Source of the DNA: Escherichia coli
GTDB taxonomy: Bacteria > Pseudomonadota > Gammaproteobacteria > Enterobacterales > Enterobacteriaceae
Assembly (NCBI RefSeq): GCF_003018235.1
Contig: NZ_CP027439.1
Length of the DNA: 64,000 nt
Direction: 5' to 3' (one strand)
Shown here piece by piece: positions 2 through 25,235 of the stretch. Both the position numbers and the translations under genes were made by a program. How positions within the stretch are numbered: the stretch's first letter is position 1; each line of letters starts with the position of its first letter. The notes beneath the pieces are model-generated. The model worked only from the letters and a program-made list of their open reading frames with translations, did no database searches and had not been told where the DNA came from.

Positions 2-1996
2 GGCATACTCAGTGCGCTGGGATACTCCATCAATACCCTGACAATGTTCGGGATGGTGCTGGCCATCGGCCTGCTGGTTGATGACGCCATTGTGGTCGTG
101 GAAAACGTTGAACGCGTAATGGCTGAGGAAGGGCTAAAACCCCGCGCTGCAACACGAAAGTCTATGGAGCAGATCCAGGGGGCGTTGGTCGGCATTGCGC
201 TGGTCTTATCGGCAGTGTTTATTCCTATGGCCTTTTTTGGTGGCAGTACGGGGGTTATCTATCGACAGTTCTCCATTACGATTGTCTCGGCGATGGTGCT
301 GTCAGTGCTTGTTGCCCTCACCCTGACGCCTGCGCTTTGCGCCACTATACTGAAGCCGGTAAAGCCCGGTGAGCATGCCAAAAACCGTGGATTTTTTGGC
401 TGGTTTAACCGCCGTTTCGACGCCAGTAGCTCGCATTATTCACGTGCTGTCGGTCGTATGCTGAACGGAACAGGACGCTACTTAATCATATACGGCGTGA
501 TTGTCCTGGGTATGGCCTGGCTGTTTGCACGTCTGCCAACCGCATTCTTGCCTTCAGAAGATCAGGGCGTATTGGCTACGCAGGCCGTCCTACCCGCAGG
601 CGCGACTCAGGAGCGTTCTCAGCTTATTCTGGATCAGATTAATGACTGGTATCTCAATAAGGAGAAGCAAAACGTTGCTAACGTCCTGACGGTCAATGGT
701 TTTGGGTTCGCCGGTCGCGGGCAGAATATTGGTATTGCCTTTATCGGCCTGAAAGACTGGTCTAAGCGTGAAGGTAGTGAAAACAGCGTTGACGCCATCG
801 CGGCACGCGCTAATGAAGCCTTCTCTAAGCTCATCGATGCGCAAATCGCCGCGTTCAACTTGCCGCCAATTATTGCACTGGGTAACGCAACCGGCTTCGA
901 TTTTGAACTGATTGATCAAGCTGGCCTGGGGCATGAAAAACTCATGGAAGCCCGCAATACCCTGCTCCAGATGGCGCAGCAGCACCCTGACGTATTGATG
1001 GCCGTAAGGCCGAACGGCATGGAAGATACGCCTCAATATCGGATCAATATCGACCAGCAAAAAGCATCAGCACTGGGCGTTTCTCTGGAGGATATTAACA
1101 CCACGCTAAGTACCGCCTGGGCAGGAAGTTACGTCAATGACTTTATGGACAGAGGCAGGGTTAAAAAGGTTTATGTGATGAGCGATGCGTCTTGGCGCAT
1201 GATGCCGGACGATCTCAATAACTGGTACGTTCGCGCCGGTAACGGTAAAATGGTTTCCTTCGCAAGTTTTGCTGACGCTCAGTGGATTTATGGCTCGCCG
1301 CGCCTTGAGCGGTTCAATGGTCTGCCGTCCCTGGAAATACTTGGACAACCTGCACCGGGTCGAAGCTCAGGCGAAGCTATGGCTCTTATGGAGCAGTTAG
1401 CATCGCAGTTACCGAAAGGTATCGGTCACGACTGGACCGGGATGTCATATCAGGAACGCCTGAGTGGTCAGCAGGCTCCGGCGCTTTATGCCCTGTCGTT
1501 GATTATCGTTTTCCTGTGTCTGGCAGCGCTGTATGAAAGCTGGTCTATTCCATTTGCTGTGATGCTGGTAGTACCGCTAGGCGTCGTTGGTGCGTTGCTC
1601 GCAACGACCTTGCGTGGTCTCAATAACGACGTCTATTTCGTTGTCGGCCTGCTTACAACCATCGGTTTATCGGCGAAGAACGCGATCCTGATCGTTGAAT
1701 TTGCCAACGACATGATGGTGAAGGAAGGAAAAGGTCTAATTGAAGCAACGCTTGAGGCAGCACATATGCGTCTGCGCCCGATATTAATGACCTCACTGGC
1801 CTTTATACTCGGGGTTCTGCCACTGGCATTAAGCCGTGGAGCTGGGTCTGGCGCACAGAATGCCGTTGGGACTGGTGTCATTGGTGGGATGGTCGCGGCA
1901 ACGCTGCTGGCGATCTACTTTGTGCCAGTGTTCTTTGTCGTTGTACGCCGTCGTTTTACTGGCAAGCGTGTCAATGATGACGAGGATGATGAGTAA
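2..1996 (+). CDS. RND multidrug efflux permease, AcrB family (5'-partial; C-terminal ~650 aa in window)
   Basis: Frame is open from position 2 ([38 protein letters not shown]...), colinear with AcrB-type transporters to the C-terminus; no start codon in window. Confidence 0.9.
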
Positions 1997-2001
1997 TCAA
2001 A

Positions 2002-2031
2002 ATCACCGGAGCCCCTGCTCCGGTGATTTTT

Positions 2032-2033
<2 letters not shown>
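2002..2033 (+). terminator. Rho-independent terminator after RND gene
   Basis: GC hairpin caccggagc/gctccggtg followed by T-run (attttttc) right after stop codon. Confidence 0.6.
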
Positions 2034-2955
<922 letters not shown>

Positions 2956-3067
2956 TTAATCATGAGAAGGGTTCATAGACGCAATCATTTTAGCCTCGTT
3001 ACTCTCAATAATCACAGTTGATACACTTCTTCACAGTTAAATTCTCCAATTGCTCAGCAGGTTTATA

Positions 3068-3838
3068 ATGAAGGTTTTAATTGTCGGTGCGACCGGCAGT
3101 ATTGGTCGTCATGTTGTAGAAATGTCGATAGAAATGGGACATCAATCGAAAGCCCTGGTCCGTTCCCCAAAAAAAAGAAAATTGTTGCCACAGGGAATTG
3201 AGATTGTTTATGGCGACGTCTCTGTCCCGGAAACATTGACCGGCATTGGAGATGATATCGATGCCGTTATTTTCACCCTGGGATCAGATGGATTAGGCCG
3301 CATTGGTGCTCGGGCAGTGGACTATGGCGGGGTGAAAAATATTCTTCAACAACTTAAGCATCGGCGAGTCAGAGTTGCGCTGATGACTGCCATCGGCGTG
3401 ACAGAAAGAGAAGGTTCGTATAACCGCCAGACGGAAGCGCATGACTGGAAACGTCGTGCGGAACGCCTGGTTCGTGCCAGCGGTCACCCCTATACCATCG
3501 TCAGGCCTGGTTGGTTTGATTACAACAAACCGAATGAACAACAAATCGTCATGTTACAGGGAGACAGACGTCATTCAGGCACACCGATCGATGGCGTGAT
3601 TTCCCGTAAACAAATAGCCAGAGTACTGGTTAGCGCATTAACAGACGATGATGCTAAGAATAAAACGCTTGAACTCATTGCCGAAAAAGGGAAAGAGCAA
3701 CAGAATCTCACCCCACTTTTCTCAGCCCTGCAACAGGACCGCGCAGATAAAAACGATGGTATTCATGATTTAAACAACATGCCCATGGACTCAGAGCCTG
3801 AGTGCGTTGTTCGTGATCTTAATGCAATGACGCAATAA
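3068..3838 (+). CDS. NAD(P)H-binding oxidoreductase, NmrA-like/atypical SDR
   Basis: Rossmann motif MKVLIVGATGSIGRHVV at N-terminus; start chosen at internal ATG of ORF 3050..3838. Confidence 0.75.
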   Translation: MKVLIVGATGSIGRHVVEMSIEMGHQSKALVRSPKKRKLLPQGIEIVYGDVSVPETLTGIGDDIDAVIFTLGSDGLGRIGARAVDYGGVKNILQQLKHRRVRVALMTAIGVTEREGSYNRQTEAHDWKRRAERLVRASGHPYTIVRPGWFDYNKPNEQQIVMLQGDRRHSGTPIDGVISRKQIARVLVSALTDDDAKNKTLELIAEKGKEQQNLTPLFSALQQDRADKNDGIHDLNNMPMDSEPECVVRDLNAMTQ

Positions 3839-13105: not shown

Positions 13106-13725
13106 GTGACATGTACGAAAACGCCCTTTGTGAAAACAAGACGGGATTCAGATTCATAACCCAGTCAGATATGTCTGCTCCTGACACTTAGCTGACTTTT
13201 AACGGGAGAACAGCCTGGCGGGCTTATATATACAGTTATCGCAATAATTTGCGTGATTTCCTGTGCTGGGGACAATAATCCGCTCAGCACAATAATCGTT
13301 CTTAATTAGTGCCCCTCATTCATCAATCCCTCTCATCTTCTCCGCAGATCCGAAAACCTCCAGAGTAGGATCTTGTCTCACCCTACCGGCGCTGCACACC
13401 ACGACAACACAAGATGTAGCGGCTCTGTCAACTGCCTTGGCTACCAGATGTTGTGTTTATCTCTTCGTTCTGTGAGGGGCGCTGCACGCCGGAAAACGGA
13501 GCTTTGCTCAGGGCGTAATCGTGCTACACTTCCGGAAAGTCGTGAATACGTGAAAAATCGGATCACCTGAAAACCGCCATCCGTTAATTTAATCCAGTGG
13601 TTATCAGGCTGCTAATTATCAGACAAAGAAAACATCATGGCAGGGAAAGTCCTGTGTGTGATAGTCAGGTGAGTTAGCGGTGGTGAGGTAATGATTGCGG
13701 TTTGTGATTATTTATTGGAAAAGGA

Positions 13726-14108: not shown

Positions 14109-15839
<1,731 letters not shown>

Positions 15840-16020: not shown

Positions 16021-16086
16021 TAACTTTTTCAGATGCAGGGATGCGGACAGATCATAAATCTTCATGTAATGTTTCAGGAGTCAGTT

Positions 16087-16521
16087 ATGGAAAATATGAT
16101 GAAAACTATGCGTGAGTATTTCCCCACGCGAACAGTAGTGTTCGAACAGTCTCTGGATATGTTTGGTATCACCCGGGGTAAGGATGGGAAGCTCATATTT
16201 CCCCGTCATTCTGATAACCGTTTCCCGATCGGGCGTATCCGCAAACGTCTGGCAGCTTATGGCTGGCGCGGAGAACGTCTGAATCAGGAAGTAGCGCGTA
16301 TCGTCGCGGGTCCTGGTGTTCTTCCTGAAAGAAATGATTACAGCATATTTTTTCCTTACGGATGGGAACGTAACCAGCTTACCCCTGAGATGCGGAGAAT
16401 GTTTCCCCGGAAGACTGGTCGCCGCGTGCTGCTTATGCTGGATGAGCTCCATTATATTCATGACGCCGGGGAGCGTAAGTCGTTTTCACCAGAAAGTAAT
16501 GAAGCACCCGAGGTATCATGA
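16087..16521 (+). CDS. Hypothetical protein, translationally coupled to the downstream recombinase
   Basis: ATG at 16087 preceded by CAGGAG; stop overlaps recombinase start (ATGA). Confidence 0.6.
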   Translation: MENMMKTMREYFPTRTVVFEQSLDMFGITRGKDGKLIFPRHSDNRFPIGRIRKRLAAYGWRGERLNQEVARIVAGPGVLPERNDYSIFFPYGWERNQLTPEMRRMFPRKTGRRVLLMLDELHYIHDAGERKSFSPESNEAPEVS

Positions 16522-17300
16522 ATTACCCTTCTCTTCCCGGACAGGCCTACGCCCCGGAAAAAGTGCATCTACCTATGGCCATCGATTACCCGGCAGCGCT
16601 GGCCCTGCGTCAGATGGCAATCGTCCAGGACGAACTGCCGAAATACCTGCTGGCCCCGGAAGTGAGCGCCCTGCTGCATTATGTCCCCGATTTGCACCGC
16701 AAGATGCTGCTGGCCACGTTGTGGAATACCGGTGCGCGCATTAACGAAGCGCTGGCCCTGACCCGGAGTGATTTTTCGCTGGTGCCACCCTACCCGTTTG
16801 TGCAACTGGCCACGCTGAAACAGCGGGCGGAAAAAGCGGCCAGAACAGCAGGAAGAACGCCTGCCGGCAGCCAGGCGCATCGCTTGGTACCGCTGTCAGA
16901 TAAACAGTACGTCAGCCAGCTGGAGATGATGGTGGCCACGCTGAAAATTCCCCTCGAACGCAGGAATAAACGTACTGGCAGAACAGAGAAAGCACGCATC
17001 TGGGAAATTACCGACCGCACGGTCCGTACCTGGCTCAGCGAAGCGGTTGAAGCGGCAGCGGCTGACGGGGTGACGTTCTCCGTGCCGGTGACACCGCATA
17101 CATTCCGTCACAGCTATGCCATGCACATGTTGTACAACGGTATTCCGCTGAAAGTGCTGCAGAGCCTGATGGGACACAAGTCAGTCAGTTCGACAGAGGT
17201 GTACACGAAGGTGTTTGCACTGGACGTAGCTGCGCGACATCGGGTGCAGTTCCTGATGCCCAGTGATGATGCTGTGGCTATGCTCAGGGGAAACACCTAA
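16518..17300 (+). CDS. Tyrosine site-specific recombinase (phage-integrase family, plasmid resolvase-like)
   Basis: 260 aa; catalytic residues in GARINEALAL, HTFRHSYAMHML and GHKSVSSTEVYTKV. Confidence 0.85.
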   Translation: MNYPSLPGQAYAPEKVHLPMAIDYPAALALRQMAIVQDELPKYLLAPEVSALLHYVPDLHRKMLLATLWNTGARINEALALTRSDFSLVPPYPFVQLATLKQRAEKAARTAGRTPAGSQAHRLVPLSDKQYVSQLEMMVATLKIPLERRNKRTGRTEKARIWEITDRTVRTWLSEAVEAAAADGVTFSVPVTPHTFRHSYAMHMLYNGIPLKVLQSLMGHKSVSSTEVYTKVFALDVAARHRVQFLMPSDDAVAMLRGNT

Positions 17301-17430
17301 GTGGTAAAACAACTGAAGATTACTCCAGTGTGGTCACTTAGCGATTGAGGCTAAGTTCCAGAGTGGTGGCGTTCAGTTATACCCAAGTGTGACAGGCTGA
17401 CGCGCCCGTCGGGCTTGTCCAACCCTTCGC

Positions 17431-17455
17431 CTGCTCAGATCCAAGATCTGAACAG
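17431..17455. promoter_or_regulatory. Candidate recombinase core site (imperfect palindrome)
   Basis: CTGCTCAGATCCAAGATCTGAACAG: 9-11-bp inverted arms around a short spacer, ~130 bp downstream of the recombinase stop. Confidence 0.3.
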
Positions 17456-17615
17456 ACTCACGGTTTGCGCGGTGGGTCAACAAAATTAAATACGATCACC
17501 AGAAATATTTTCTGGACACTTTTTCCGATAGTGCCGAATTGTCCAGGTTGGAAAGCATTTTTTGTGCGTTGTTGAAGGGCCGCGACGAGTGGAGCAAGGT
17601 GACAAAAATAATGCT

Positions 17616-17639
17616 GGACAGAAAAACCTGAACGTCCAA
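17616..17639 (+). repeat. Conserved inter-cassette site, copy 1
   Basis: GGACAGAAAAACCTGAACGTCCAA; consensus GGACAGAATAACCTGAATGTCCAG. Confidence 0.7.
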
Positions 17640-18129
17640 TATGGGGAAAGGATTACGTGACGGGGCGGGTTTGCTAGCAGTTCTGCGAACGTACCAGCGC
17701 ATCGAGGACTGGTAATGCCAGCAGGCTATTACGTCCGGGCTGGAAAATCGAGAGTTGCGATGATGACGAGGCAAGGGGATCGCAGACATTAACCTCTGCA
17801 ATAGAATATCTATTGCGTGATTTATTATAAATGTTATCCCTTTATTGTTTTCCAATTATCCCCGCAGTTGAAGAAATCAGCACTGAATAAAATTTTCAAA
17901 ATTTTATTCATGATGCTTACAAATAAATTAATGTAGATGAATCATCGGGATAGACTATTCTACATCAACTGCATTCTTAATTTTACGTCAAAATCAAGCG
18001 TTGCACTAAAATAAATCCTTACTAGAATAGCTATCCAGAAGAATCACCATGTATTCTTCAGTCTGACCCTCGGGCGCAGATTCTTGTTGTATTAAAATAT
18101 TGGGAAAATAAATCAGGAGTGAAAATGCA

Positions 18130-18441
18130 GTGACAGAGACACGTTACACAACGTCTGAAAGCAAAAAAGCCCTGAATAATCAGAGCTTTATTACTGGATT
18201 GGAAATGACGGCCATCAAATCCAATTCAAAACACACCAAAGGCATGTCCTCAAGTGATGAAGATAATAGAAAACTATTCAATCTACGTCAACCGAATGCC
18301 TGCGGTAACAATCCCAAAGCCGTTATCGGAGGTACGATTATGTTGCCATTGCTCAACACGTTCATGAATGCCCCTCTTCTGAGTCAGGGGGCTACTATCC
18401 TGTTTCTTGGGCTTCTTATCCTTGCGCTCAAGAACCAGTGA
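18130..18441 (+). CDS. Small protein with C-terminal transmembrane tail (family A)
   Basis: C-terminal hydrophobic stretch IMLPLLNTFMNAPLLSQGATILFLGLLILAL; shares FNLRQ...GG...LL.Q pattern with 19121..19450; start codon uncertain. Confidence 0.5.
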   Translation: MTETRYTTSESKKALNNQSFITGLEMTAIKSNSKHTKGMSSSDEDNRKLFNLRQPNACGNNPKAVIGGTIMLPLLNTFMNAPLLSQGATILFLGLLILALKNQ

Positions 18442-18476
18442 TCGCACTGAGCTGGCTTCGGCCAGCTTCTTTACTT

Positions 18477-18500
18477 GGATAGAATCACCTGAACGTCCAG
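18477..18500 (+). repeat. Conserved inter-cassette site, copy 2
   Basis: GGATAGAATCACCTGAACGTCCAG, 36 bp after stop of 18130..18441. Confidence 0.7.
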
Positions 18501-18595
18501 TCGGGCGCTAATTTATAATAAATGACCGTAGAAGGGCCATTTCTACGGCAAAGTTCTGGAGATGATAAAATAAGGGCCTTAAACAATAAAAGGGC

Positions 18596-19003
18596 TTGCT
18601 TATGACACTGGACCAACTGCTTGAAATCCACGACTGCGCTGGGCTGAGCACCTATGAACAGGAAACAATTATATCTTTCATTAACCAGCGGCGAGGTGAC
18701 TTTGGTGTAAAAGCGTTTCCGGAAATTATGCCTCCAGTATCTTGCGGCTGGATCTCCAGAAGAACAAAACAACGTTCTCAGGAGCAGGCAGACGAAAATA
18801 GCTGGAATTATTATAAACAGAAGATTCAGGAATGGATAACGCTAATCGAATTGCATGAGGCATCACTTACTAGGGGGGAAAAGCTAAAGCGCTTTGTGGG
18901 AAAGCATAAATGGTGGTTAGGAGGCACTTGCGCAGTTATCGCATCAATTACAAGCACTGTGATAGCTAGCTGGATTCTTTCGTTATGGACTTGGGCTAAC
19001 TGA
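18596..19003 (+). CDS. Small protein with C-terminal transmembrane segment
   Basis: 135-aa ORF; C-terminal WWLGGTCAVIASITSTVIASWILSLW. Confidence 0.5.
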   Translation: MLMTLDQLLEIHDCAGLSTYEQETIISFINQRRGDFGVKAFPEIMPPVSCGWISRRTKQRSQEQADENSWNYYKQKIQEWITLIELHEASLTRGEKLKRFVGKHKWWLGGTCAVIASITSTVIASWILSLWTWAN

Positions 19004-19005
19004 CG

Positions 19006-19030
19006 TGACAGAAGCTGCGTTACGTCCAAG
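19006..19030 (+). repeat. Conserved inter-cassette site, degenerate copy
   Basis: GTGACAGAAGCTGCGTTACGTCCAAG directly after stop of 18596..19003. Confidence 0.5.
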
Positions 19031-19120
19031 TTGATAAAAAGTTGTTATCCACAGAGAACAGGGCGGTCATCCGGCGGGTTCAATAATATGATATTATTAC
19101 AGCACCTTAAAAAATAAGGA

Positions 19121-19450
19121 TTGCGGACGGATGATATATTGATAAAGGATACTCATGCGTGTAAAACGCAAAATACCCTGAGTAATCAGGGTATTAAACG
19201 CGGAAAAGTAAAGGTTGAGCGCTTTACATTTTCCATTCACACCAGAGGCGTGACTAAATCTAAAATTGATTCTACGGCAACGTTCAATCTACGTCAAATC
19301 GCCAATGGTTTTCCTGTTATGAAAATTACCGGAGGCTTCATGTTGTTAACCATCATCGACACCTATCTTCATGCTTCATTACTGACACAGATACTGGTAA
19401 TCCCGTTTATCTGTGCGGTGGTGTGGGCGGTAAAGAAAATCCGGGTATAA
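19121..19450 (+). CDS. Small protein with C-terminal transmembrane tail (family A paralog)
   Basis: ATFNLRQIANGFPVMKITGGFMLLTIIDTYLHASLLTQILVIPFICAVVWAV parallels the C-terminus of 18130..18441. Confidence 0.5.
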   Translation: MRTDDILIKDTHACKTQNTLSNQGIKRGKVKVERFTFSIHTRGVTKSKIDSTATFNLRQIANGFPVMKITGGFMLLTIIDTYLHASLLTQILVIPFICAVVWAVKKIRV

Positions 19451-19504
19451 CTTAAACATGGCTGGCTGAGAGGCCAGCCATGTTCAGTGAGTTTTGTTTC
19501 GAAT

Positions 19505-19529
19505 GGACAGAATAACCTGAATGTCCAAG
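19505..19529 (+). repeat. Conserved inter-cassette site, copy 3
   Basis: GGACAGAATAACCTGAATGTCCAAG. Confidence 0.7.
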
Positions 19530-19645
19530 TTTGCAAGGAATTGTGATCGTACTACAACCAGTGTCAACCTTCCTATAATGCAGATAATCTTCTATAATTT
19601 CTTTTAATTCTGTGGCGATGTCATTAAGGAAAAGAGGTATTATTT

Positions 19646-19903
19646 ATGGGAAATAAACACATCAGCGCCAGTGAAGCTAAAAAGATTAGTTCTTCAGTGA
19701 TACCTGATGCAGACAAAACACTTGATATGATATTTGGAGGAATAAAGCTCCAAGCAAGATTGGGCCAGACATCCTTTATTTATCCTGTCCATGAAAACAT
19801 TCTTGAGCAAGTGGTCAAGGTTCTAAGGGAATCTGGTTATAGGATTAACTCATCGAAGGCTAATGAGAATAACAAATTTATTATTGAAATTAGCTGGCAG
19901 TGA
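19646..19903 (+). CDS. Hypothetical small soluble protein
   Basis: 85-aa ORF with GAGG-like RBS (aaaagaggtattatttATG). Confidence 0.5.
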   Translation: MGNKHISASEAKKISSSVIPDADKTLDMIFGGIKLQARLGQTSFIYPVHENILEQVVKVLRESGYRINSSKANENNKFIIEISWQ

Positions 19904-19962
19904 AATAGAATCCGCTTTGTCTTTATTTTACCCTTGAAGCCACCCATTAGTGTGGCTTTTTT

Positions 19963-19986
19963 TGACAAGATTACCTGAATGTCCAG
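19963..19986 (+). repeat. Conserved inter-cassette site, copy 4
   Basis: GACAAGATTACCTGAATGTCCAGG. Confidence 0.7.
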
Positions 19987-19998
19987 GTAACGCGGGGA

Positions 19999-20445
19999 TT
20001 AATGAGAAGAATAGGTAGTTGGTATATTTAGCTTGAGTCCAATCTCCTTTATGAGATTGTAGGTATTTTCCTTACTGTTGCCAGCAAGTATTGAGGTGAT
20101 CTCATTAAGGTTTTGTGCTGCACCAAGAACTTCACCCTTTGATGGTACAAACTTCATACCTAAATAGCTTCTTTTTAGGCTACCAGGCAAGGCTGCATAC
20201 TTTGCCATTAACTGAGAAGCAGCATCTTTCAAATCGTGGATGGTTTCATGATTAGCTCTGAAATTTGTGATCGTCGCTTGCTCACGTAATAAAAGCGCTG
20301 TAATCCTCCCTAATTGTTCTCTGAATGATATATAAGGCTCAATGAATCTTTTTGCGATGAGTTGACCAACAACAAAAACGGTTACGCCGGTCAGAACAGT
20401 TACGGCAGCAGACGAACTCATAATTGTACCTAGTGACTGAATCAT
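19999..20445 (-). CDS. Hypothetical protein with N-terminal transmembrane helix
   Basis: 148 aa; N-terminal AAVTVLTGVTVFVVGQLIA; divergent from 20563..21042. Confidence 0.5.
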   Translation of the reverse strand: MIQSLGTIMSSSAAVTVLTGVTVFVVGQLIAKRFIEPYISFREQLGRITALLLREQATITNFRANHETIHDLKDAASQLMAKYAALPGSLKRSYLGMKFVPSKGEVLGAAQNLNEITSILAGNSKENTYNLIKEIGLKLNIPTTYSSH

Positions 20446-20483
20446 GGGGGTTATCCTATCTGGAGGGCAACAGCCTGTCTACT

Positions 20484-20507
20484 GTACAGAAAATGCTGTA
20501 TGTCCAG
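20484..20507 (+). repeat. Conserved inter-cassette site, divergent copy 5
   Basis: GTACAGAAAATGCTGTATGTCCAG between the divergent ORFs. Confidence 0.5.
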
Positions 20508-20562
20508 TCTGTGCTGGAATTATAATGGCAACCATGATCATCACAGGAAGAACGAGTAACAG

Positions 20563-21042
20563 ATGGCAACTGCGTGGGTGGATGTGGCTGATAATGCCGT
20601 AAAAATAGGTTTGGGGTCGTTGTTGACTATTTTAGGGGGGTGGCTGACTCTTAAGCTAACACAAAAGCACGAATTAAAAAAAGAAGCGGCAGTACAGGGA
20701 TTAAAAGATAAAGAAATAAAAACCAAACGATATGTGGAGTTTCTGACCTTGTCTCAATCTCTCATGCAAAAATATTTATATGAGCAGTGTGAAGCAAATA
20801 ACGATGATTATCTTGCCTATCTTCGCATACATAATGAGATAACGATCACGTCAGGTTTAGCCATAAGGAAAGCAGCATTTAAACTCCAGTTTGATGTTTC
20901 TACTTTCATTTTCTACAACAAAATACACGACACAGAACTCATTAATGCACTGAGGGATAAGGCTAGAAATTCTGTTTCCATGTTTCAGGCCATTGTGAAT
21001 GAGGAAATCTGCAACGGAAAGTTTGGCACAGCAAGCCAGTAG
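20563..21042 (+). CDS. Hypothetical protein with N-terminal transmembrane helix
   Basis: 159 aa; N-terminal IGLGSLLTILGGWLTLKL. Confidence 0.5.
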   Translation: MATAWVDVADNAVKIGLGSLLTILGGWLTLKLTQKHELKKEAAVQGLKDKEIKTKRYVEFLTLSQSLMQKYLYEQCEANNDDYLAYLRIHNEITITSGLAIRKAAFKLQFDVSTFIFYNKIHDTELINALRDKARNSVSMFQAIVNEEICNGKFGTASQ

Positions 21043-21046
21043 CGCT

Positions 21047-21071
21047 GGGCAGAATAACCTGAATGTTTAAC
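21047..21071 (+). repeat. Conserved inter-cassette site, copy 6
   Basis: GGGCAGAATAACCTGAATGTTTAAC, 4 bp after stop. Confidence 0.6.
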
Positions 21072-21299
21072 TGCCGGAGGAATTAACCGAGGGGCGTGAA
21101 AAGGCCGCTTACGCGGCCTCAGTTTTCTCTTGAACTCCTGAAGTCTATGTAGTCGATAAACTCAAGAATATAGTAGGCAATCACGCCTGTACCTACATAG
21201 ATAGCTCCGAATATCAGTGACTCACTCATTGAAGTGTACTCCTGAATAACACTCTATTGCACATAGCCGCAAGCCAGATCCCTCGCATCCAGTATAACC

Positions 21300-21490
21300 G
21301 GACTTACTCCACTGCAGTTTCAGAAACAACTACGTCTACAGGAAGCCAGACGATTGATGTTACGAGGTTCAGATGCCAGTATTGCCGGGTACAACGTTGG
21401 ATATGAAAGCACAAGTCAGTTCTCCCGGGAATATAGACGTTACTTCGGCTATCCCCCCAAAAAGGACATTGCACGATTACGCGAAACATA
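21300..21490 (+). pseudogene. AraC-family regulator, C-terminal HTH fragment only
   Basis: Translation ...[30 protein letters not shown] matches the second HTH of AraC/XylS proteins; no upstream body. Confidence 0.6.
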
Positions 21491-21529
21491 AACATCTTTG
21501 ACATTCGCGACGTCCGACCAGCCGAACAG

Positions 21530-21554
21530 GATAGAACACCCTGAACATCTCGGC
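21530..21554 (+). repeat. Conserved inter-cassette site, copy 7
   Basis: GGATAGAACACCCTGAACATCTCGG. Confidence 0.5.
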
Positions 21555-21653
21555 TGACTGTGCTTTCATTTTTAGTCGGTTAAGCAGACGCTTTTCTGTA
21601 ATTTCTTTCAGTTCAATGTAGCTGATACTTAACTTTTTGAAATAACTAATATT

Positions 21654-21941
21654 TCACCTCATTCGTTCGCTGGCAAGATTATAAACATCACTACGTTCAC
21701 GTTTCCCTACAGCAACAACAGCGATAACTAATTGATCATCAATCACCTGATAAACCAGGCGGAAGCCAGACGCACGAAGTTTAATTTTGTAGCAATCCTT
21801 TATCCCACGCAGTTTTGCTGATGGGATATGTGGATTTTCACTGCACTTCTTTAGCTTTTTAGCAAACTGCTGCTGAATTGCCTTATCCAGTTTTTGCCAT
21901 TCTTTCAGTGCATCTTCCCTGAATCTGACTGTGTAAGTCAT
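21654..21941 (-). CDS. RelE/StbE-family type II toxin
   Basis: 95 aa; ...CYKIKLRASGFRLVYQVIDDQLVIAVVAVGKRERSDVY resembles plasmid StbE/RelE. Confidence 0.85.
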   Translation of the reverse strand: MTYTVRFREDALKEWQKLDKAIQQQFAKKLKKCSENPHIPSAKLRGIKDCYKIKLRASGFRLVYQVIDDQLVIAVVAVGKRERSDVYNLASERMR

Positions 21942-22189
21942 AGGTAGCTATCCAGATCTACATCGTGCAGCTTCTGGTTGCTGCGTTCGGCGACCAGATT
22001 AACCAGTTCCTGATCGTCTAGGGCATCGAGCATCTTTTCATACAGTTCTGCGGGGACACAGTAAAAGGCGGGCTGGTTACGGTTCAGAATCGCGACTGGG
22101 TAACCATCACCGGCACTGACTGTCGCCATCGGGTTTTTTTTCAGTTCGCTGACACTGGCGCTAGTGTCACTCAGAATAATGTGGGGCAT
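21938..22189 (-). CDS. Phd/YefM/StbD-family antitoxin
   Basis: 83 aa, overlaps toxin start by 4 bp; classic antitoxin-toxin order. Confidence 0.8.
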   Translation of the reverse strand: MPHIILSDTSASVSELKKNPMATVSAGDGYPVAILNRNQPAFYCVPAELYEKMLDALDDQELVNLVAERSNQKLHDVDLDSYL

Positions 22190-22271
22190 AGGGCACCTTT
22201 AGAGACTATTTAACAGGTCTTTATAGTGTTCTAAAAAAGACCTCTTAACAAGTCTTTTTGTCATTTTACTC

Positions 22272-22316
22272 AATGTGCCGTAAAGCCCCGCCCTTCAGGG
22301 CGAGGAGGATGTCAAA
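22272..22316 (+). repeat. 45-bp direct repeat with hairpin, copy 1 (second copy at 26028..26072)
   Basis: AATGTGCCGTAAAGCCCCGCCCTTCAGGGCGAGGAGGATGTCAAA. Confidence 0.7.
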
Positions 22317-22412
22317 TAATAGGACCCCGAAAGGATTAGTAATGTGGCGTCTTTGCTACACAGGTGCTTTTGTAATATGTTGTATAGCGTACTCACTACA
22401 CAGGAGATGTGT

Positions 22413-22952
22413 ATGGCATTGTCACAGATCAGCGTTCGTATTGATGATGAACTCAAACAACGCACGGATGAAAAAATGAAACTGCTGAGAACCAACCCCA
22501 CGCAGGCCATTACGTTGCTCTATCAGTATATTGCTGAAAATGGGAAACTTCCCTTTACTGTCAGCACCCAACTCTTCACTTCAGAGGATTACACCCAAAA
22601 ATTAATCACCACAGTCAGATCTATTTATGAATACTGGCGCGCGCTTTCTGAGACATCAGCAACAACCAGAACGAAAAGTGGAATGGCCTATTCAATGGCA
22701 ATGGCAGCACATGTTTCGAAGCTGCACAGCGATCTGATACACAACTGCGGCACCTTGAGTGGTGAAGAAGTTGCCTCATTAATGATTGTTATGGAGGACA
22801 TTCTTTCTACGCCGCCATCTTTTTATCGCGGAGAAGCGCCCGATCAGGTGTTTCAGGATAAATTAAACGCTGCTGACCAAACTATTCTGATGATTGAAAA
22901 ATGTCATGGTATGAATGTTCAACGCGGGGAAAATTTTTACGCTCTCAGATGA
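22413..22952 (+). CDS. DinJ/RelB-like ribbon-helix-helix N-terminus with ~130-aa C-terminal extension
   Basis: N-terminal MALSQISVRIDDELKQRTDEKMKLLRTNPTQAITLLYQYIAENGKLPF resembles DinJ antitoxins; C-terminal domain unrecognised. Confidence 0.5.
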   Translation: MALSQISVRIDDELKQRTDEKMKLLRTNPTQAITLLYQYIAENGKLPFTVSTQLFTSEDYTQKLITTVRSIYEYWRALSETSATTRTKSGMAYSMAMAAHVSKLHSDLIHNCGTLSGEEVASLMIVMEDILSTPPSFYRGEAPDQVFQDKLNAADQTILMIEKCHGMNVQRGENFYALR

Positions 22953-22999
22953 ATGCACTGAATATGCAACAGCCCGTAAGGGTTTTTTTTGTGTACGCA

Positions 23000-23022
23000 G
23001 GACAGTTAATCCTAGTGTCCAG
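23000..23022 (+). repeat. Conserved inter-cassette site, copy 8
   Basis: GGACAGTTAATCCTAGTGTCCAG. Confidence 0.5.
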
Positions 23023-23085
23023 TGTGGAGCGGAAGTTACGTAACATTTGACGTAAGTATTTTTGGGATACTTATGAACTGAAATA

Positions 23086-23105
23086 AGATTTCGCATGCGA
23101 AATCT
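23086..23105. promoter_or_regulatory. parS-like palindrome 1
   Basis: AGATTTCGCATGCGAAATCT perfect palindrome. Confidence 0.6.
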
Positions 23106-23306
23106 ATTGCGTATCATTATTGATACTCTATGATTTCTCTGTATACTGTTCATATTGTCATGAACGTATGGCAACAAACGCAGTAGTAGATAGCTGCTTC
23201 TGCATCTTGGCGCAACGCCTGACTCACAGGAGTGTGTATGAAATACCGCAATGAATTCATATCATTACAGCAATACTTTTTCAATCCGCGCCGCCCCCTC
23301 TCAAAC

Positions 23307-23322
23307 ATTTCGCATGCGAAAT
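23307..23322. promoter_or_regulatory. parS-like palindrome 2 (parA operator position)
   Basis: ATTTCGCATGCGAAAT 15 bp upstream of the parA start. Confidence 0.6.
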
Positions 23323-23337
23323 CTTAAGGACTGTTAC

Positions 23338-24204
23338 ATGACACTGAAAATTGGACCTATCGGAAAATTAATCGTTATATGTAGCCAGAAGGGCGGAATC
23401 GTAAAATCGCAGTCATCCAGCGAAATAGCATATGATCTTCGAGAATCAGGTTTTCGTGTGCTTGAAATTGATATGGACTGGACTACTGGTCTGACAGAGA
23501 GAGCTTTCCCCGATAGCTTACCCTATGAGATAGAGCGCGAACCTTTAAGTAACAGTTTTACACCCGGCGAAGCGAATACATATCAGCTTTTCTTCCCGGA
23601 CACTGAAGTTCGACCGATTGAGCTTCCTGGCGGGCGTTTTTTTATTGGCGCTACCAGTGAGCTTAATGAAATTAACTACCGCAACAGCGACTGTATGTTC
23701 GACTTCAGAGACCGTATTGAAGAACTGAAGAAACAGTTTGATTTTATTATTGCTGATTCAGCGCCATCATATTCAAACGTTATGATCGCCGCACATATGT
23801 CAGCTGACTATCTTCTGATCCCTACTCTGTTGGAGAAGCAGGCCCGAAATGCAGTTGGTAAACAGCTTACTTACATGCAAAAAATAAAACGGAACTATAA
23901 TCCATCGTTGCAGTTTATGGGCACTTATGTGACCCAAACACCGGTAAAAAATTATAAAAAGCCGCTTAAAGAAGGGTATTTGGGACCTATTGATACACTG
24001 AATCTGAATCTACTCATTGAGATCCTTCAGGGAAAAGGATATTCCGAAGAGTACATTCTTGCCTATATATCATTTGTACCTGCTGCTGCCAAAGAAGCGA
24101 TAGAACTTGGCCTCTCATTTGATGAATATGATCCTAAGTGTCTTCCTGCAATTCAGTATAAAGAGCTTACCCAGAAAATTATTCAGATCGCAGGAGATAA
24201 ATAA
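23338..24204 (+). CDS. parA: ParA-family partition ATPase
   Basis: Deviant Walker A (ICSQKGGIVKSQ); overlaps parB start (TAATG). Confidence 0.8.
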   Translation: MTLKIGPIGKLIVICSQKGGIVKSQSSSEIAYDLRESGFRVLEIDMDWTTGLTERAFPDSLPYEIEREPLSNSFTPGEANTYQLFFPDTEVRPIELPGGRFFIGATSELNEINYRNSDCMFDFRDRIEELKKQFDFIIADSAPSYSNVMIAAHMSADYLLIPTLLEKQARNAVGKQLTYMQKIKRNYNPSLQFMGTYVTQTPVKNYKKPLKEGYLGPIDTLNLNLLIEILQGKGYSEEYILAYISFVPAAAKEAIELGLSFDEYDPKCLPAIQYKELTQKIIQIAGDK

Positions 24205-25235
24205 TGGCCAAGAAACCGTTTATGAAACGACTCAAGGCGCAGCAGGAAATGAAAAAAAACTCTGCTGTTGTCTCTGATATTGAACAAGTCATTGCAAATA
24301 AACAGCCAGATGAGAAGAGCCATGACGTATCTGCGCACCAGATTTTGACAGATATTTCCCGCCCGGTTCTTGAACCTGATGGACAGATAATCCGCGTCGA
24401 TATAAACCTGGTTTATGCTGAGGAACAAGTACGACCTGAAGAAGATTTCGATGAAGAGGTTATCGATGGTATGGCAGATACTTTCGAAACCATAGGGATG
24501 CTTACCCCGCCTCGTTGTTATCCCCGCGACAGACGTGGATACCAGATATGGTTAGGAGAAACACGAGTTCGTACTGCACGTAAACGTGGTGATACCCATA
24601 TTGATATTTATGTCGGTAAACCACCACGAGAAAGAAAAGAACGAATCATTGGTCAGCTCATTGAAAACCTTCAGCAATCGGGTTTAAAACCATTAGCGAC
24701 TGCAAGATCGTTCTATGAACTTAAGCATCACTTCAATATGACGGGTGAACAGATCGCAAAAACGATGGGTAAACCAACCTCATTTGTCAGTAAACATCTT
24801 CGTCTCATTGATGCTCCAGAGAATGTTACCGCCCTTCTCCGGGATAAAGTGACATCCGATATTGATTTGGCTTACACACTAATACAGGTAAATGAAAGGG
24901 CTCCTGAAGAAGCCGAGAAGCTTATTGCAGCTGCGCGGGAATCTGGTATTTCACGCGCGCAAGTTAAAGCTGTTCTTGATGAGGTTAAGAACAAAAGCAA
25001 CCGTGAGATTTCGCATGCGAAATCTAAAGCTCAGAATAAAAGGCCATCCAAGTCTCTTAATAACAATTCAGATGTAAAAAGCTGGCAGGTAGTTGTCGAG
25101 ATTGACGGTCAGCAGGGAGTAATAATGACCGACCGTGCGCCAGAGGAAGATGGCTATGTGTGGGTTAAATTAGATATTGGTGAAATATCCGTCGAGGCTT
25201 CAGAGGTTCGTGTCAAGGGAATGCGGTCTTTGTGA
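24204..25235 (+). CDS. parB: ParB-family partition protein
   Basis: 343 aa downstream of parA; ParB/Spo0J-like HTH region (GEQIAKTMGKPTSFVSKHLRL). Confidence 0.75.
   Translation: MAKKPFMKRLKAQQEMKKNSAVVSDIEQVIANKQPDEKSHDVSAHQILTDISRPVLEPDGQIIRVDINLVYAEEQVRPEEDFDEEVIDGMADTFETIGMLTPPRCYPRDRRGYQIWLGETRVRTARKRGDTHIDIYVGKPPRERKERIIGQLIENLQQSGLKPLATARSFYELKHHFNMTGEQIAKTMGKPTSFVSKHLRLIDAPENVTALLRDKVTSDIDLAYTLIQVNERAPEEAEKLIAAARESGISRAQVKAVLDEVKNKSNREISHAKSKAQNKRPSKSLNNNSDVKSWQVVVEIDGQQGVIMTDRAPEEDGYVWVKLDIGEISVEASEVRVKGMRSL
25006..25025. promoter_or_regulatory. parS-like palindrome 3 (inside parB)
   Basis: AGATTTCGCATGCGAAATCT. Confidence 0.55.

Follow-up and report, generated by a model that had tools for sequence, protein, structure and literature searches.

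The window examined here is a stretch of 64,000 nt of the Escherichia coli contig NZ_CP027439.1 (assembly GCF_003018235.1) and belongs to an F-type conjugative plasmid. Between its dimer-resolution and partition genes lies a row of small genes separated by copies of a short repeated site and preceded by a conserved non-coding leader (Table 1). From left to right, the window carries efflux, LysR and dehydrogenase cargo genes, a degenerate rfsF-like site, an element of the IS3 family of insertion sequences (IS), the orf162-resD pair and the array itself, followed by parAB, umuDC, a RepB-type initiator gene, the leading region and the traJ to traH segment. Judged by the comparisons reported below, the region is a true cassette array, with precise gain and loss of its units, reshuffling and uniform polarity. 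It is probably a cassette-capture platform, integron-like in its working but made from different parts.

The repeated site, (c)TGGACAGAAtnACCTGAAyGTCCAg, is present in nine copies, all on one strand, spanning 17616-23022; seven are strong and two are degenerate. For the 24-bp motif with at most three mismatches, 3 copies were found versus 0.00 expected from shuffles. A position-weight matrix (PWM) built from the copies retrieved the strong plus-strand sites at 17616, 18477, 19505, 19963, 20484, 21047 and 21529; applied to both strands of the whole 64 kb, it gave no hit on the minus strand and none beyond the array. The nine copies reported near small open reading frames (ORFs) in the initial annotation are all real, two of them in degenerate form, and their positions hold except for one that was a base off (21530, actually 21529). 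The site of about 24 bp proposed there is also real but extends further on both sides, being preceded by c-T and followed, after about 8 nt, by a GGRATTA box. It can be described as a core of about 26 bp with 7-bp inverted arms, CTGGACA/TGTCCAG, the downstream GGRATTA box being extra. The recombining core can also be written CTGGACAGAA-TN-ACCTGAAYGTCCAG, and the site can be read as a 10-7-10 arrangement in which palindromic arms (CTGGACA plus 3 nt) end in AA. The degenerate copies are at 19006 (TGACAGAAGCTGCGTTACGTCCAA), where the right half has decayed and only the left half is kept, and at 23000 (GGACAGTTAATCCTAGTGTCCAG), which is one base short. A full site is found at the end of the homologous cassette in locus L005 (compared loci are cited by L numbers), and the same terminal junction before parA is found in L006.

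The distances of 3-60 bp between stop codon and site, the divergent ORFs around the copy at 20484 and the AT-richness of the region (G+C 0.42 versus 0.51-0.52 in the flanks) are as first described. Several sites are preceded by the hairpin and T-run terminator of the upstream gene; such terminator-like hairpins are enriched (15 versus 4.9 expected) and belong to the cassette genes. In a promoter scan, neither the sites nor the leader showed a consensus promoter, and an Rfam search of 13-26 kb found no match for either, the only hits being isrC, within the IS3-family element, and two below threshold. Folded as single strands, the sites gave -2.3 to -5.7 kcal/mol, with z-scores from 0.01 to -1.19; the exception is the site at 20484 (z -2.78), for which the fold leaves the site's own arms unpaired. 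Since the sites fold weakly as single-stranded DNA, the core is of the duplex type.

Table 1. Features of the array and of its surroundings in the window
Feature	Coordinates	Strand	Remarks
Degenerate rfsF-like site	13346..13373		AGATCCGAAAACCTCCAGAGTAGGATCT; 3 mismatches to the rfsF pattern of PMC8299605; presumed cognate site of ResD
orf162	16033..16521	+	Operon partner of resD, whose start codon it overlaps; PHROG 26837 (function unknown), E=5e-65
resD	16518..17300	+	Multimer-resolution tyrosine recombinase, 260 aa; neighbour of the array
Conserved leader	17380..17575	+	Inverted repeat IR-a 17387-17423; hairpin about 17434-17458; core 17490-17546 (..ACGATCACC..TGGACACTTTTTCCGATAGTGCCGAATTGTCCAG)
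Site 1, leader-proximal	17616..17639	+	GGACAGAAAAACCTGAACGTCCAA; PWM 35.2; +103 from leader core as in all IncF-type leaders
Cassette 1	17640..18476	+	861 bp site to site; dinQ/dqlB-like family; 33-aa transmembrane (TM) peptide 18340-18441
Site 2	18477..18500	+	GGATAGAATCACCTGAACGTCCAG; PWM 34.3; megablast homology blocks begin inside, at window 18483
Cassettes 2 and 3, fused via decayed site 19006-19029	18501..19504	+	ORF135; 36-aa TM peptide 19340-19450
Site 4, best copy	19505..19528	+	GGACAGAATAACCTGAATGTCCAA; PWM 38.4
Cassette 4	19529..19962	+	ORF85 (19646-19903)
Site 5	19963..19986	+	TGACAAGATTACCTGAATGTCCAG; PWM 27.6
Cassette 5	19987..20483	-	ORF148 (19999-20445), PHROG 7512, E=2e-46; gene inverted, sites not
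Site 6	20484..20507	+	GTACAGAAAATGCTGTATGTCCAG; variant centre ATGCTG, always with the downstream cassette
Cassette 6	20508..21046	+	ORF159 (20563-21042), N-terminal TM segment
Site 7	21047..21070	+	GGGCAGAATAACCTGAATGTTTAA; PWM 31.5
Cassette 7	21071..21528		36-aa hydrophobic peptide, minus strand (21119-21229), and terminator; then AraC-family C-terminal fragment
Site 8	21529..21552	+	GGATAGAACACCCTGAACATCTCG; weak right arm; PWM 19.0; also in pDEC5B-4 (L060 9397)
Cassette 8	21553..22999		relE/phd (21654-22189, minus strand) and relB/dinJ-like 202-aa gene (22344-22952)
Site 9, terminal	23000..23022	+	GGACAGTTAATCCTAGTGTCCAG, then GGAAGTTA; junction to the parA promoter region
parA, parB	23251..25235	+	Right-hand boundary of the array

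The region was compared with a pooled set of 82 loci drawn from PLSDB, from one genome per species (GTDB) and from metagenomes. All 247 sites in these loci face the same way relative to the leader, the opposite strand having none. The loci contain 169 cassettes (median 583 bp, range 129-3206) falling into 98 families at 85% identity, and 21 of the 30 recurrent families occur with at least two different pairs of neighbours. The backbone of pDEC5B-4 is 99.3-99.7% identical on both sides of the array; there, the leader and a single site, which is site 4 of the window (L059 2548), stand directly before the ORF85 cassette. Relative to it, the window has an extra 1889 bp, consisting of three cassettes between two copies of the site, with a site-precise junction at site 1 (17616). 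The ORF85 cassette (cassette 4) has four different upstream neighbours across loci and is missing exactly, from site to site, in the IncX4 plasmid L056. Cassette 1, with the same right-hand part of its site, follows three different neighbours (window, L001 and L004), and cassette 6 precedes four different cassettes (window, L001, L002 and L007). Cassette 5 recurs in L002, L007, L056 and L059, while cassettes 2 and 3 travel jointly in L056 and L057; the full site of L005 stands after the ORF135 homologue. Among 4044 megablast matches, none covers 80% or more of the region: separate pieces match different plasmids at 85-99.7% identity, and the blocks of homology start and end inside motif copies. 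The integron-like, site-bounded array of the initial annotation is thereby borne out, in that cassettes are precisely present or absent and reshuffled at the sites, and the block is not an invariant unit in related plasmids.

In the scan of species-representative genomes, arrays were found only in Enterobacterales (Escherichia, Cedecea, Hafnia, Enterobacter, Erwinia and Pantoea), and PLSDB adds those of Klebsiella, Citrobacter and Salmonella. A lambdoid prophage (IMGVR_UViG_2648501177_000013) has a leader-like element (L129 2908-3125) and a six-site array (L130 466-3046), both in the nin region, between the replication genes and the Q antiterminator gene. In a second prophage, one cassette lies between two sites near the tail-fibre/moron end (L128 9025-10062). 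As to pDEC5B-4, the closest relative, it contains two inverted IS3 copies, one of which interrupts the array (L059 3453-4600, L060 9751-10898); because of them, its resD-leader and relBE-parAB segments are 48 kb apart and inverted.

To locate the crossover, sites that share the upstream cassette and differ in the downstream one were compared, and conversely. Positions up to about 8 of the site go with the upstream cassette, whereas position 11 onward, together with the GGRATTA box, goes with the downstream cassette; positions 9-10, which alone are poorly conserved, may go with either. As read from these alignments, the crossover is confined to a 2-3-bp interval, A8/T9-N10/A11, at the inner edge of the left arm. 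No exchange was seen within the longest shared identity, ACCTGAAyGTCCA (13-14 nt, right half of the site), in 31 informative pairs, and homologous recombination is disfavoured because it is this longer conserved half that shows none. The unusual centres ATGCTG, TATCGG and ACCTTT always stay with the downstream cassette; recombination has therefore joined sites that differ in their centres, in a one-sided event. By analogy with XerC at cer and with IntI at attC, we infer that this one-sided pattern would stem from a tyrosine recombinase that exchanges the first strands but does not complete branch migration. A serine-type mechanism is disfavoured because it needs matching central dinucleotides, and those of neighbouring sites (positions 9-10) vary: AA, TC, TA and TT.

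The leader had been overlooked in the initial annotation; a conserved block is present at 17380-17575. It was aligned across 8 + 8 loci of IncF, IncX1 and IncX4 plasmids, Hafnia, Cedecea, Erwinia and a metagenome-assembled genome, and it is also conserved in the prophage. It heads every array examined on the leader side, and the distance from its core to the first site is fixed within each type: +103 for the IncF type, +165 for the IncX type and +188 for a third type. Its core, with the consensus AAATWCGATCACC-N9-TGGACAYTTTTTCCGATAGTGCCGnnnTGTCCAGG, has site-like TGGACA/TGTCCA arms which are 21 nt apart, those of the cassette sites being 12 nt apart. A 22-mer of the core was found in 63 metagenome contigs, with sites only downstream and on the same strand. 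In five non-IncF leader lineages, one to three copies of GGGNAGGG, the E. coli consensus of the FtsK-orienting polar sequences (KOPS), lie between leader core and first site (for example at about 2990-3070 in L129, and in L017, L042 and L050). Within leader-to-site intervals of normal length, every copy points at the first site and the opposite strand has none; IncF-type leaders, including that of the window, have no KOPS motif. In the IncX1 and IncX4 leaders, a Ter-like sequence of the Tus-binding kind, GTATGTTGTAACTAA, stands directly 5' of the first cassette site (about 3700-3720 in L002 and about 5035-5055 in L056), so that the IncX1/IncX4 array begins at a replication-terminus signal.

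The genes next to the leader vary. The most frequent neighbour is an IncX4-type ResD-like recombinase gene (product 45% identical to ResD), divergent and 100 bp from the core, in about 21 loci; an F-type resD in tandem is found in about 8, a first lineage of serine resolvases (divergent) in about 8 and a second (tandem) in about 6, and in a few loci no recombinase gene is beside the leader (e.g. microcin J25 genes instead). The site consensus is identical in all four recombinase-neighbour groups, and a complete IncX1 plasmid has no tyrosine recombinase, although IncX1-type arrays differ in their first cassettes. Because consensus, leader and cassettes are the same whatever the neighbour, the neighbour does not determine specificity, and the enzyme would act in trans. 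This goes against the suggestion that the adjacent 260-aa recombinase is the integrase of the array: the gene is resD, whose target, rfsF, is a different sequence and lies upstream, and the same leader, consensus and cassettes are found beside serine resolvases, without any recombinase and in a prophage.

The product of resD is 85.7% identical over 252 aa to ResD (D protein) of the F plasmid, fits models of the Xer-type catalytic domain and falls far below the integron-integrase cut-offs. The documented target of ResD is rfsF, AGATCCGNAA-N8-TTNCGGATCT (PMC8299605). Perfect or near-perfect rfsF copies lie about 1.5 kb upstream of resD in F, L001, L005, L006 and L018, and the orf162-resD pair is also present in pDEC5B-4. 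The repeated site is not rfsF, as it shares at most C..AA with an rfsF arm and rfsF sits upstream of the resD operon. Other candidates were likewise discarded. The serine resolvases own separate res regions without TGGACA arms, and positions 9-10 differ between neighbouring sites; the 'malate dehydrogenase' cassettes in fact encode effectors with a restriction endonuclease (REase) fold; a 500-aa IncX1 protein has no Pfam domain. The Rpn (YhgA-like) 'recombination-promoting nuclease' recurs near leaders but is absent from the window and from IncX plasmids: some ten loci with an IncF-type leader have its gene upstream of that leader, at a distance of at most about 1.3 kb (L001 4880-5815, L005 6870-7859, L064, L071, L075, L078, L082, L096, L118 and L048). 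A lead from the 'xerC' gene associated with mcr-10 (PMC7067168) was also dropped, pOZ172 being without motif and leader and its recombinase a different protein of 331 aa. Finally, the sites are not a ParB centromere, as the same sites accompany unrelated partition systems (MipZ-like, SopAB and ParM).

The mechanism that we propose for the platform is the following. A leader of about 200 bp (17380-17575) is followed, at a fixed distance, by what would be a primary recombination site, and then by eight self-contained cassettes of 0.45-1.5 kb, each with its own gene in either orientation and often its own terminator. Each cassette boundary is one double-stranded core of about 26 bp, cTGGACAGAA/tn/ACCTGAAyGTCCAg, at which site-specific recombination would insert, delete and exchange cassettes between replicons. 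Strands would be exchanged immediately 3' of A8, where the left arm has its inner edge, so that each site would be a hybrid, its first 8 nt or so coming from the upstream cassette and the rest, with the GGRATTA box, from the downstream one. The chemistry would be of the tyrosine-recombinase kind, with a one-sided first-strand exchange tolerant of different centres, and the enzyme would presumably be supplied in trans, not by the adjacent resD.

Several points weigh against such a platform. The leader adjoins a multimer-resolution recombinase gene in most loci, which a fully autonomous platform does not explain. The site fits no known recombinase target (rfsF, dif/cer/psi, res, attC or sfx), and the strong conservation of the leader core and of the site, positions 9-10 excepted, is also what a DNA-binding regulator would produce. 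Many of the related loci share descent and so do not count as independent samples, and the evidence, all of it comparative, ties no recombinase to the site.

As to the enzyme, a member of the ResD family, especially of the IncX4-type clade, and host XerCD with FtsK are the two leading candidates, equally doubtful in our view, the remaining weight going to something not yet recognised. The ResD candidate leads to a scheme, which we think unlikely, where the adjacent recombinase is the integrase, the leader and first site form its resolution site, and cassettes accrue by rare recombination at the core. Among about 44 informative metagenome loci, about 29 do have a gene of this family flanking the leader, as do the window, L001, L005, L006, L018, L042, L050, L056 and L057. 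For the IncX4-type clade, whose divergent gene lies 100 bp from the core, no rfsF-like site is found within kilobases; often only the leader and one site are present, as if the recombinase stood beside a resolution site of its own. The 10-7-10 reading, with its palindromic arms ending in AA, resembles the 10-8-10 structure of rfsF, and such arms suit a single-protein recombinase. However, the F-type ResD, which is that of the window, has its different, documented target upstream, and the F plasmid has both ResD and rfsF, yet no leader and only a decayed half-site. Recombinases 45% identical are not expected to use one common site, and the same leader, consensus and cassettes exist beside serine resolvases with their own res, beside microcin genes, in IncX1 plasmids without tyrosine recombinase and in the prophage. 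These last contexts are what an enzyme of the host would explain: if XerCD, activated by FtsK, recombined the sites, the arrays would be the enterobacterial counterpart of the pdif modules of Acinetobacter, with the leader as an accessory or FtsK-loading region. Being ubiquitous, XerCD would account for the lack of an integrase in cis, for a single consensus across contexts and genera and for the prophage copy. The arrays occupy the resolution, partition or terminus part of plasmids, with a Ter-like site in the IncX leaders, and in five non-IncF leader lineages the polar KOPS motifs are aimed at the first site. FtsK activates XerD from the XerD side; the leader-side arm, in reverse complement TTcTGTccAg, can be set against the XerD arm TTATGTTAAAT, with the crossover at its inner border. 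That match, however, is 11-12 of 22 in the best register, no better than chance once several registers are tried, and a search for Xer-like sites with up to five mismatches found none in the array or related loci. The outer CTGGACA shared by both arms suggests one protein species rather than XerC plus XerD, the IncF-type leaders lack KOPS, and the sites are all direct instead of alternating as in pdif. We hold XerCD for possible but improbable.

Two other readings were weighed. The motif could be the operator or insulator of a DNA-binding protein, and the modules could be swapped by homologous or short-homology recombination (RecA or phage Red-type), as proposed for the mosaic boundaries of lambdoid phages and for 'morons'. 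Such a motif is what a dimeric binder typically uses: its arms are palindromic and occur at two spacings, 12 nt in the sites and 21 nt in the leader, which differ by about one helical turn. Conservation extends to nearly every position, each cassette is an autonomous unit of promoter, gene and terminator, and arrays occur in the lambdoid nin region. Against this, crossovers are found only at positions 8-11 and never in the longer identity on the right, the identity between sites (70-90% over 24 bp) is below the usual requirements of RecA, and the polarity of 247 to 0 holds even when the gene inside is inverted. No consensus promoter accompanies site or leader, and no regulator gene is common to IncX1, IncF and phage; the operator reading is thus quite improbable. 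Far less probable still is that the cassettes are non-autonomous transposable elements, be they miniature inverted-repeat transposable elements (MITEs), IS or IS200/IS605-like, inserted in tandem in a specific 12-bp target. The units do start with TGTCCAG and end with CTGGACA, as 7-bp terminal inverted repeats would, and are arranged head to tail. But the supposed target between units is not a duplication: positions 11-17 always go with the downstream unit, and the flanking copies differ. In addition, there is no associated transposase, the single-strand hairpin is weak and the cargo is unrelated, the site alone being shared by the units.

The cassette-capture platform resembles several known systems without coinciding with any, and the initial annotation was right to set the array apart from class 1-type integrons, XerCD/dif modules and shufflons, each of which fails on its defining features. 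Like integrons, it has a fixed platform, behind which small, unrelated and individually mobile cassettes follow in one direction; these are gained, lost and reordered precisely at sites of one orientation. The crossover is at one fixed point near one end of the site, each site being a hybrid of two cassettes. As in chromosomal integrons, many cassettes carry toxin-antitoxin genes or encode small proteins of unknown function. The array is nevertheless not an integron because it has neither IntI nor attC: scores were 63 bits with TIGR02249 (cut-off 265) and 49 with NF011946 (cut-off 435), and the core has 26 bp, no GTTRRRY box and poor folding, whereas attC is a folded structure of 55-140 nt with R''/L''/L'/R' boxes. 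Unlike in integrons, most of the site is at the 5' start of the cassette and not at its 3' end, cassettes have their own terminators and genes in either orientation, a non-coding leader replaces intI/Pc/attI and the enzyme would act in trans. With the pdif modules of Acinetobacter the array shares its location on plasmids, the short bounding sites, the lack of a recombinase in cis, the toxin-antitoxin cargo and its presence in unrelated plasmids; it differs by the absence, in the array and related loci, of 11-bp XerC/XerD arms (GGTGCGYRYAA..TTATGKTAAAY, 6-8-bp centre) with five or fewer mismatches, by the lack of alternating orientation and by the leader that precedes it.

The likeness to ResD/rfsF and to cer/psi lies in the ResD homologue and in the position of the array, which is where plasmids resolve their dimers; as in cer/psi-type sites, about 200 bp of conserved DNA come before the core, like accessory sequences. 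Being a known point of replicon fusion and module exchange (PMC8004404, PMC9412624, PMC8299605), rfsF is relevant here, but its core sequence differs, it is single-copy and upstream of the resD operon, and no rfsF-bounded cassette array has been described. The cassettes also recall the 'morons' of lambdoid phages, which are autonomous promoter-gene-terminator units between backbone genes: one array is in a nin region, and several window cassettes have phage homologues. To our knowledge, morons have no common bounding site, no fixed polarity and no leader. A shufflon (Rci/sfx) is contradicted by sites that are all direct, cassettes that are unrelated genes and the absence of Rci, a serine-resolvase res by res regions that are separate and without TGGACA arms and by the differences at positions 9-10, and an IS or MITE by inter-unit sequences that segregate downstream without duplication and by the lack of an associated transposase.

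On balance, we favour the view that, besides integrons and pdif modules, there is a third and independent type of platform for gene cassettes, which these arrays represent. It would be found in Enterobacterales, have no integrase of its own and be shared by IncF, IncX1, IncX4 and other plasmids and by lambdoid prophages; recombination would be carried out either by an enzyme of the host on a non-canonical site or, in trans, by recombinases of the resolution type. What is new is a site-bounded cassette platform present in many enterobacterial plasmids and a prophage, of which we found no description; the full-text literature search, which included the site and leader sequences as strings, covered subscription journals thinly, and an older account (e.g. 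among papers on pOLA52 and other IncX plasmids) is possible. In E. coli, Klebsiella and Salmonella, genes for resistance and virulence are carried mainly by plasmids of the IncF and IncX types. If the platform is what we suppose, an unrecognised site-specific route would move ready-to-express cassettes among these plasmids and into prophages, which would explain part of their mosaicism and link the accessory gene pools of plasmids and phages. It would also provide a defined place in which to seek new anti-phage, anti-defence and addiction genes, the 98 families of this small sample being mostly unannotated. Should the enzyme be host XerCD/FtsK, Xer-driven gene mobility would extend to Enterobacterales on a non-canonical site; should it be a ResD-type resolvase, a dimer-resolution site would be seen evolving into a gene-capture platform, a plausible model for the origin of integrons.

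The recognisable products of the cassettes are RelE/Phd, RelB-like, HigB and ToxN/AbiQ proteins, Abi proteins, an HNH nuclease, small toxins of the DinQ/DqlB type and the REase-fold effectors mis-annotated as 'malate dehydrogenase' (PADLOC Aga_Helical-REase, 1e-28). The recognisable cargo thus consists of addiction, abortive-infection/defence and small membrane peptide genes, so that the platform probably swaps such functions between plasmids and phages. In the window, the AraC fragment and the toxin-antitoxin genes mentioned initially were recovered, the latter as relE/phd and relB-like genes. The window cassettes encode small membrane-anchored proteins or peptides of unknown function, two of which have phage homologues in PHROGs (that of ORF135, 18596-19003, with a C-terminal TM segment, is PHROG 34759). 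Three hydrophobic peptides of 33-36 aa, at 21119-21229 (minus strand), 18340-18441 (plus) and 19340-19450 (plus), are like type I toxins. The first of them forms with its terminator a cassette family of about 340 bp, which recurs in many arrays, sometimes in tandem (L004 10068-10756).

A few further observations concern the surroundings of the arrays. The rfsF-like site at 13346 is the only one in the window and its right arm has decayed; it is split from the resD operon by the IS3-family insertion (about 14618-15831), inside which the Rfam isrC match lies (14650-14772). With a decayed arm and this insertion, ResD-mediated resolution may therefore be impaired here. In the F plasmid, a half-decayed site, TGGACAGAACAACCTAATGAACACA, is present without leader between resD and oriS/repE (L003 7971; NC_002483, about 47970) and looks like an eroded empty platform. 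In Hafnia paralvei (L018 5159-5661), a second, 5'-truncated copy of resD (codons about 92-260) lies 37 bp past the second cassette site. In L004 (1201-6000), the res of the serine resolvase beside the leader has received a Tn5053-like 'res hunter' (tniA, tniB, tniQ and tniR; inverted repeat TGTCATTTTCAGAAGACG), flanked by a 5-bp duplication, ACTTT. On the other side of the array, the same ParAB is found after the arrays of L005, L006, L048, L058, L069 and L078, and in the window two copies of a perfect palindrome, TAAGATTTCGCATGCGAAATCTTA, at 23084-23107 and 23304-23327, bracket the start of parA, where they are probably the par operator or centromere.

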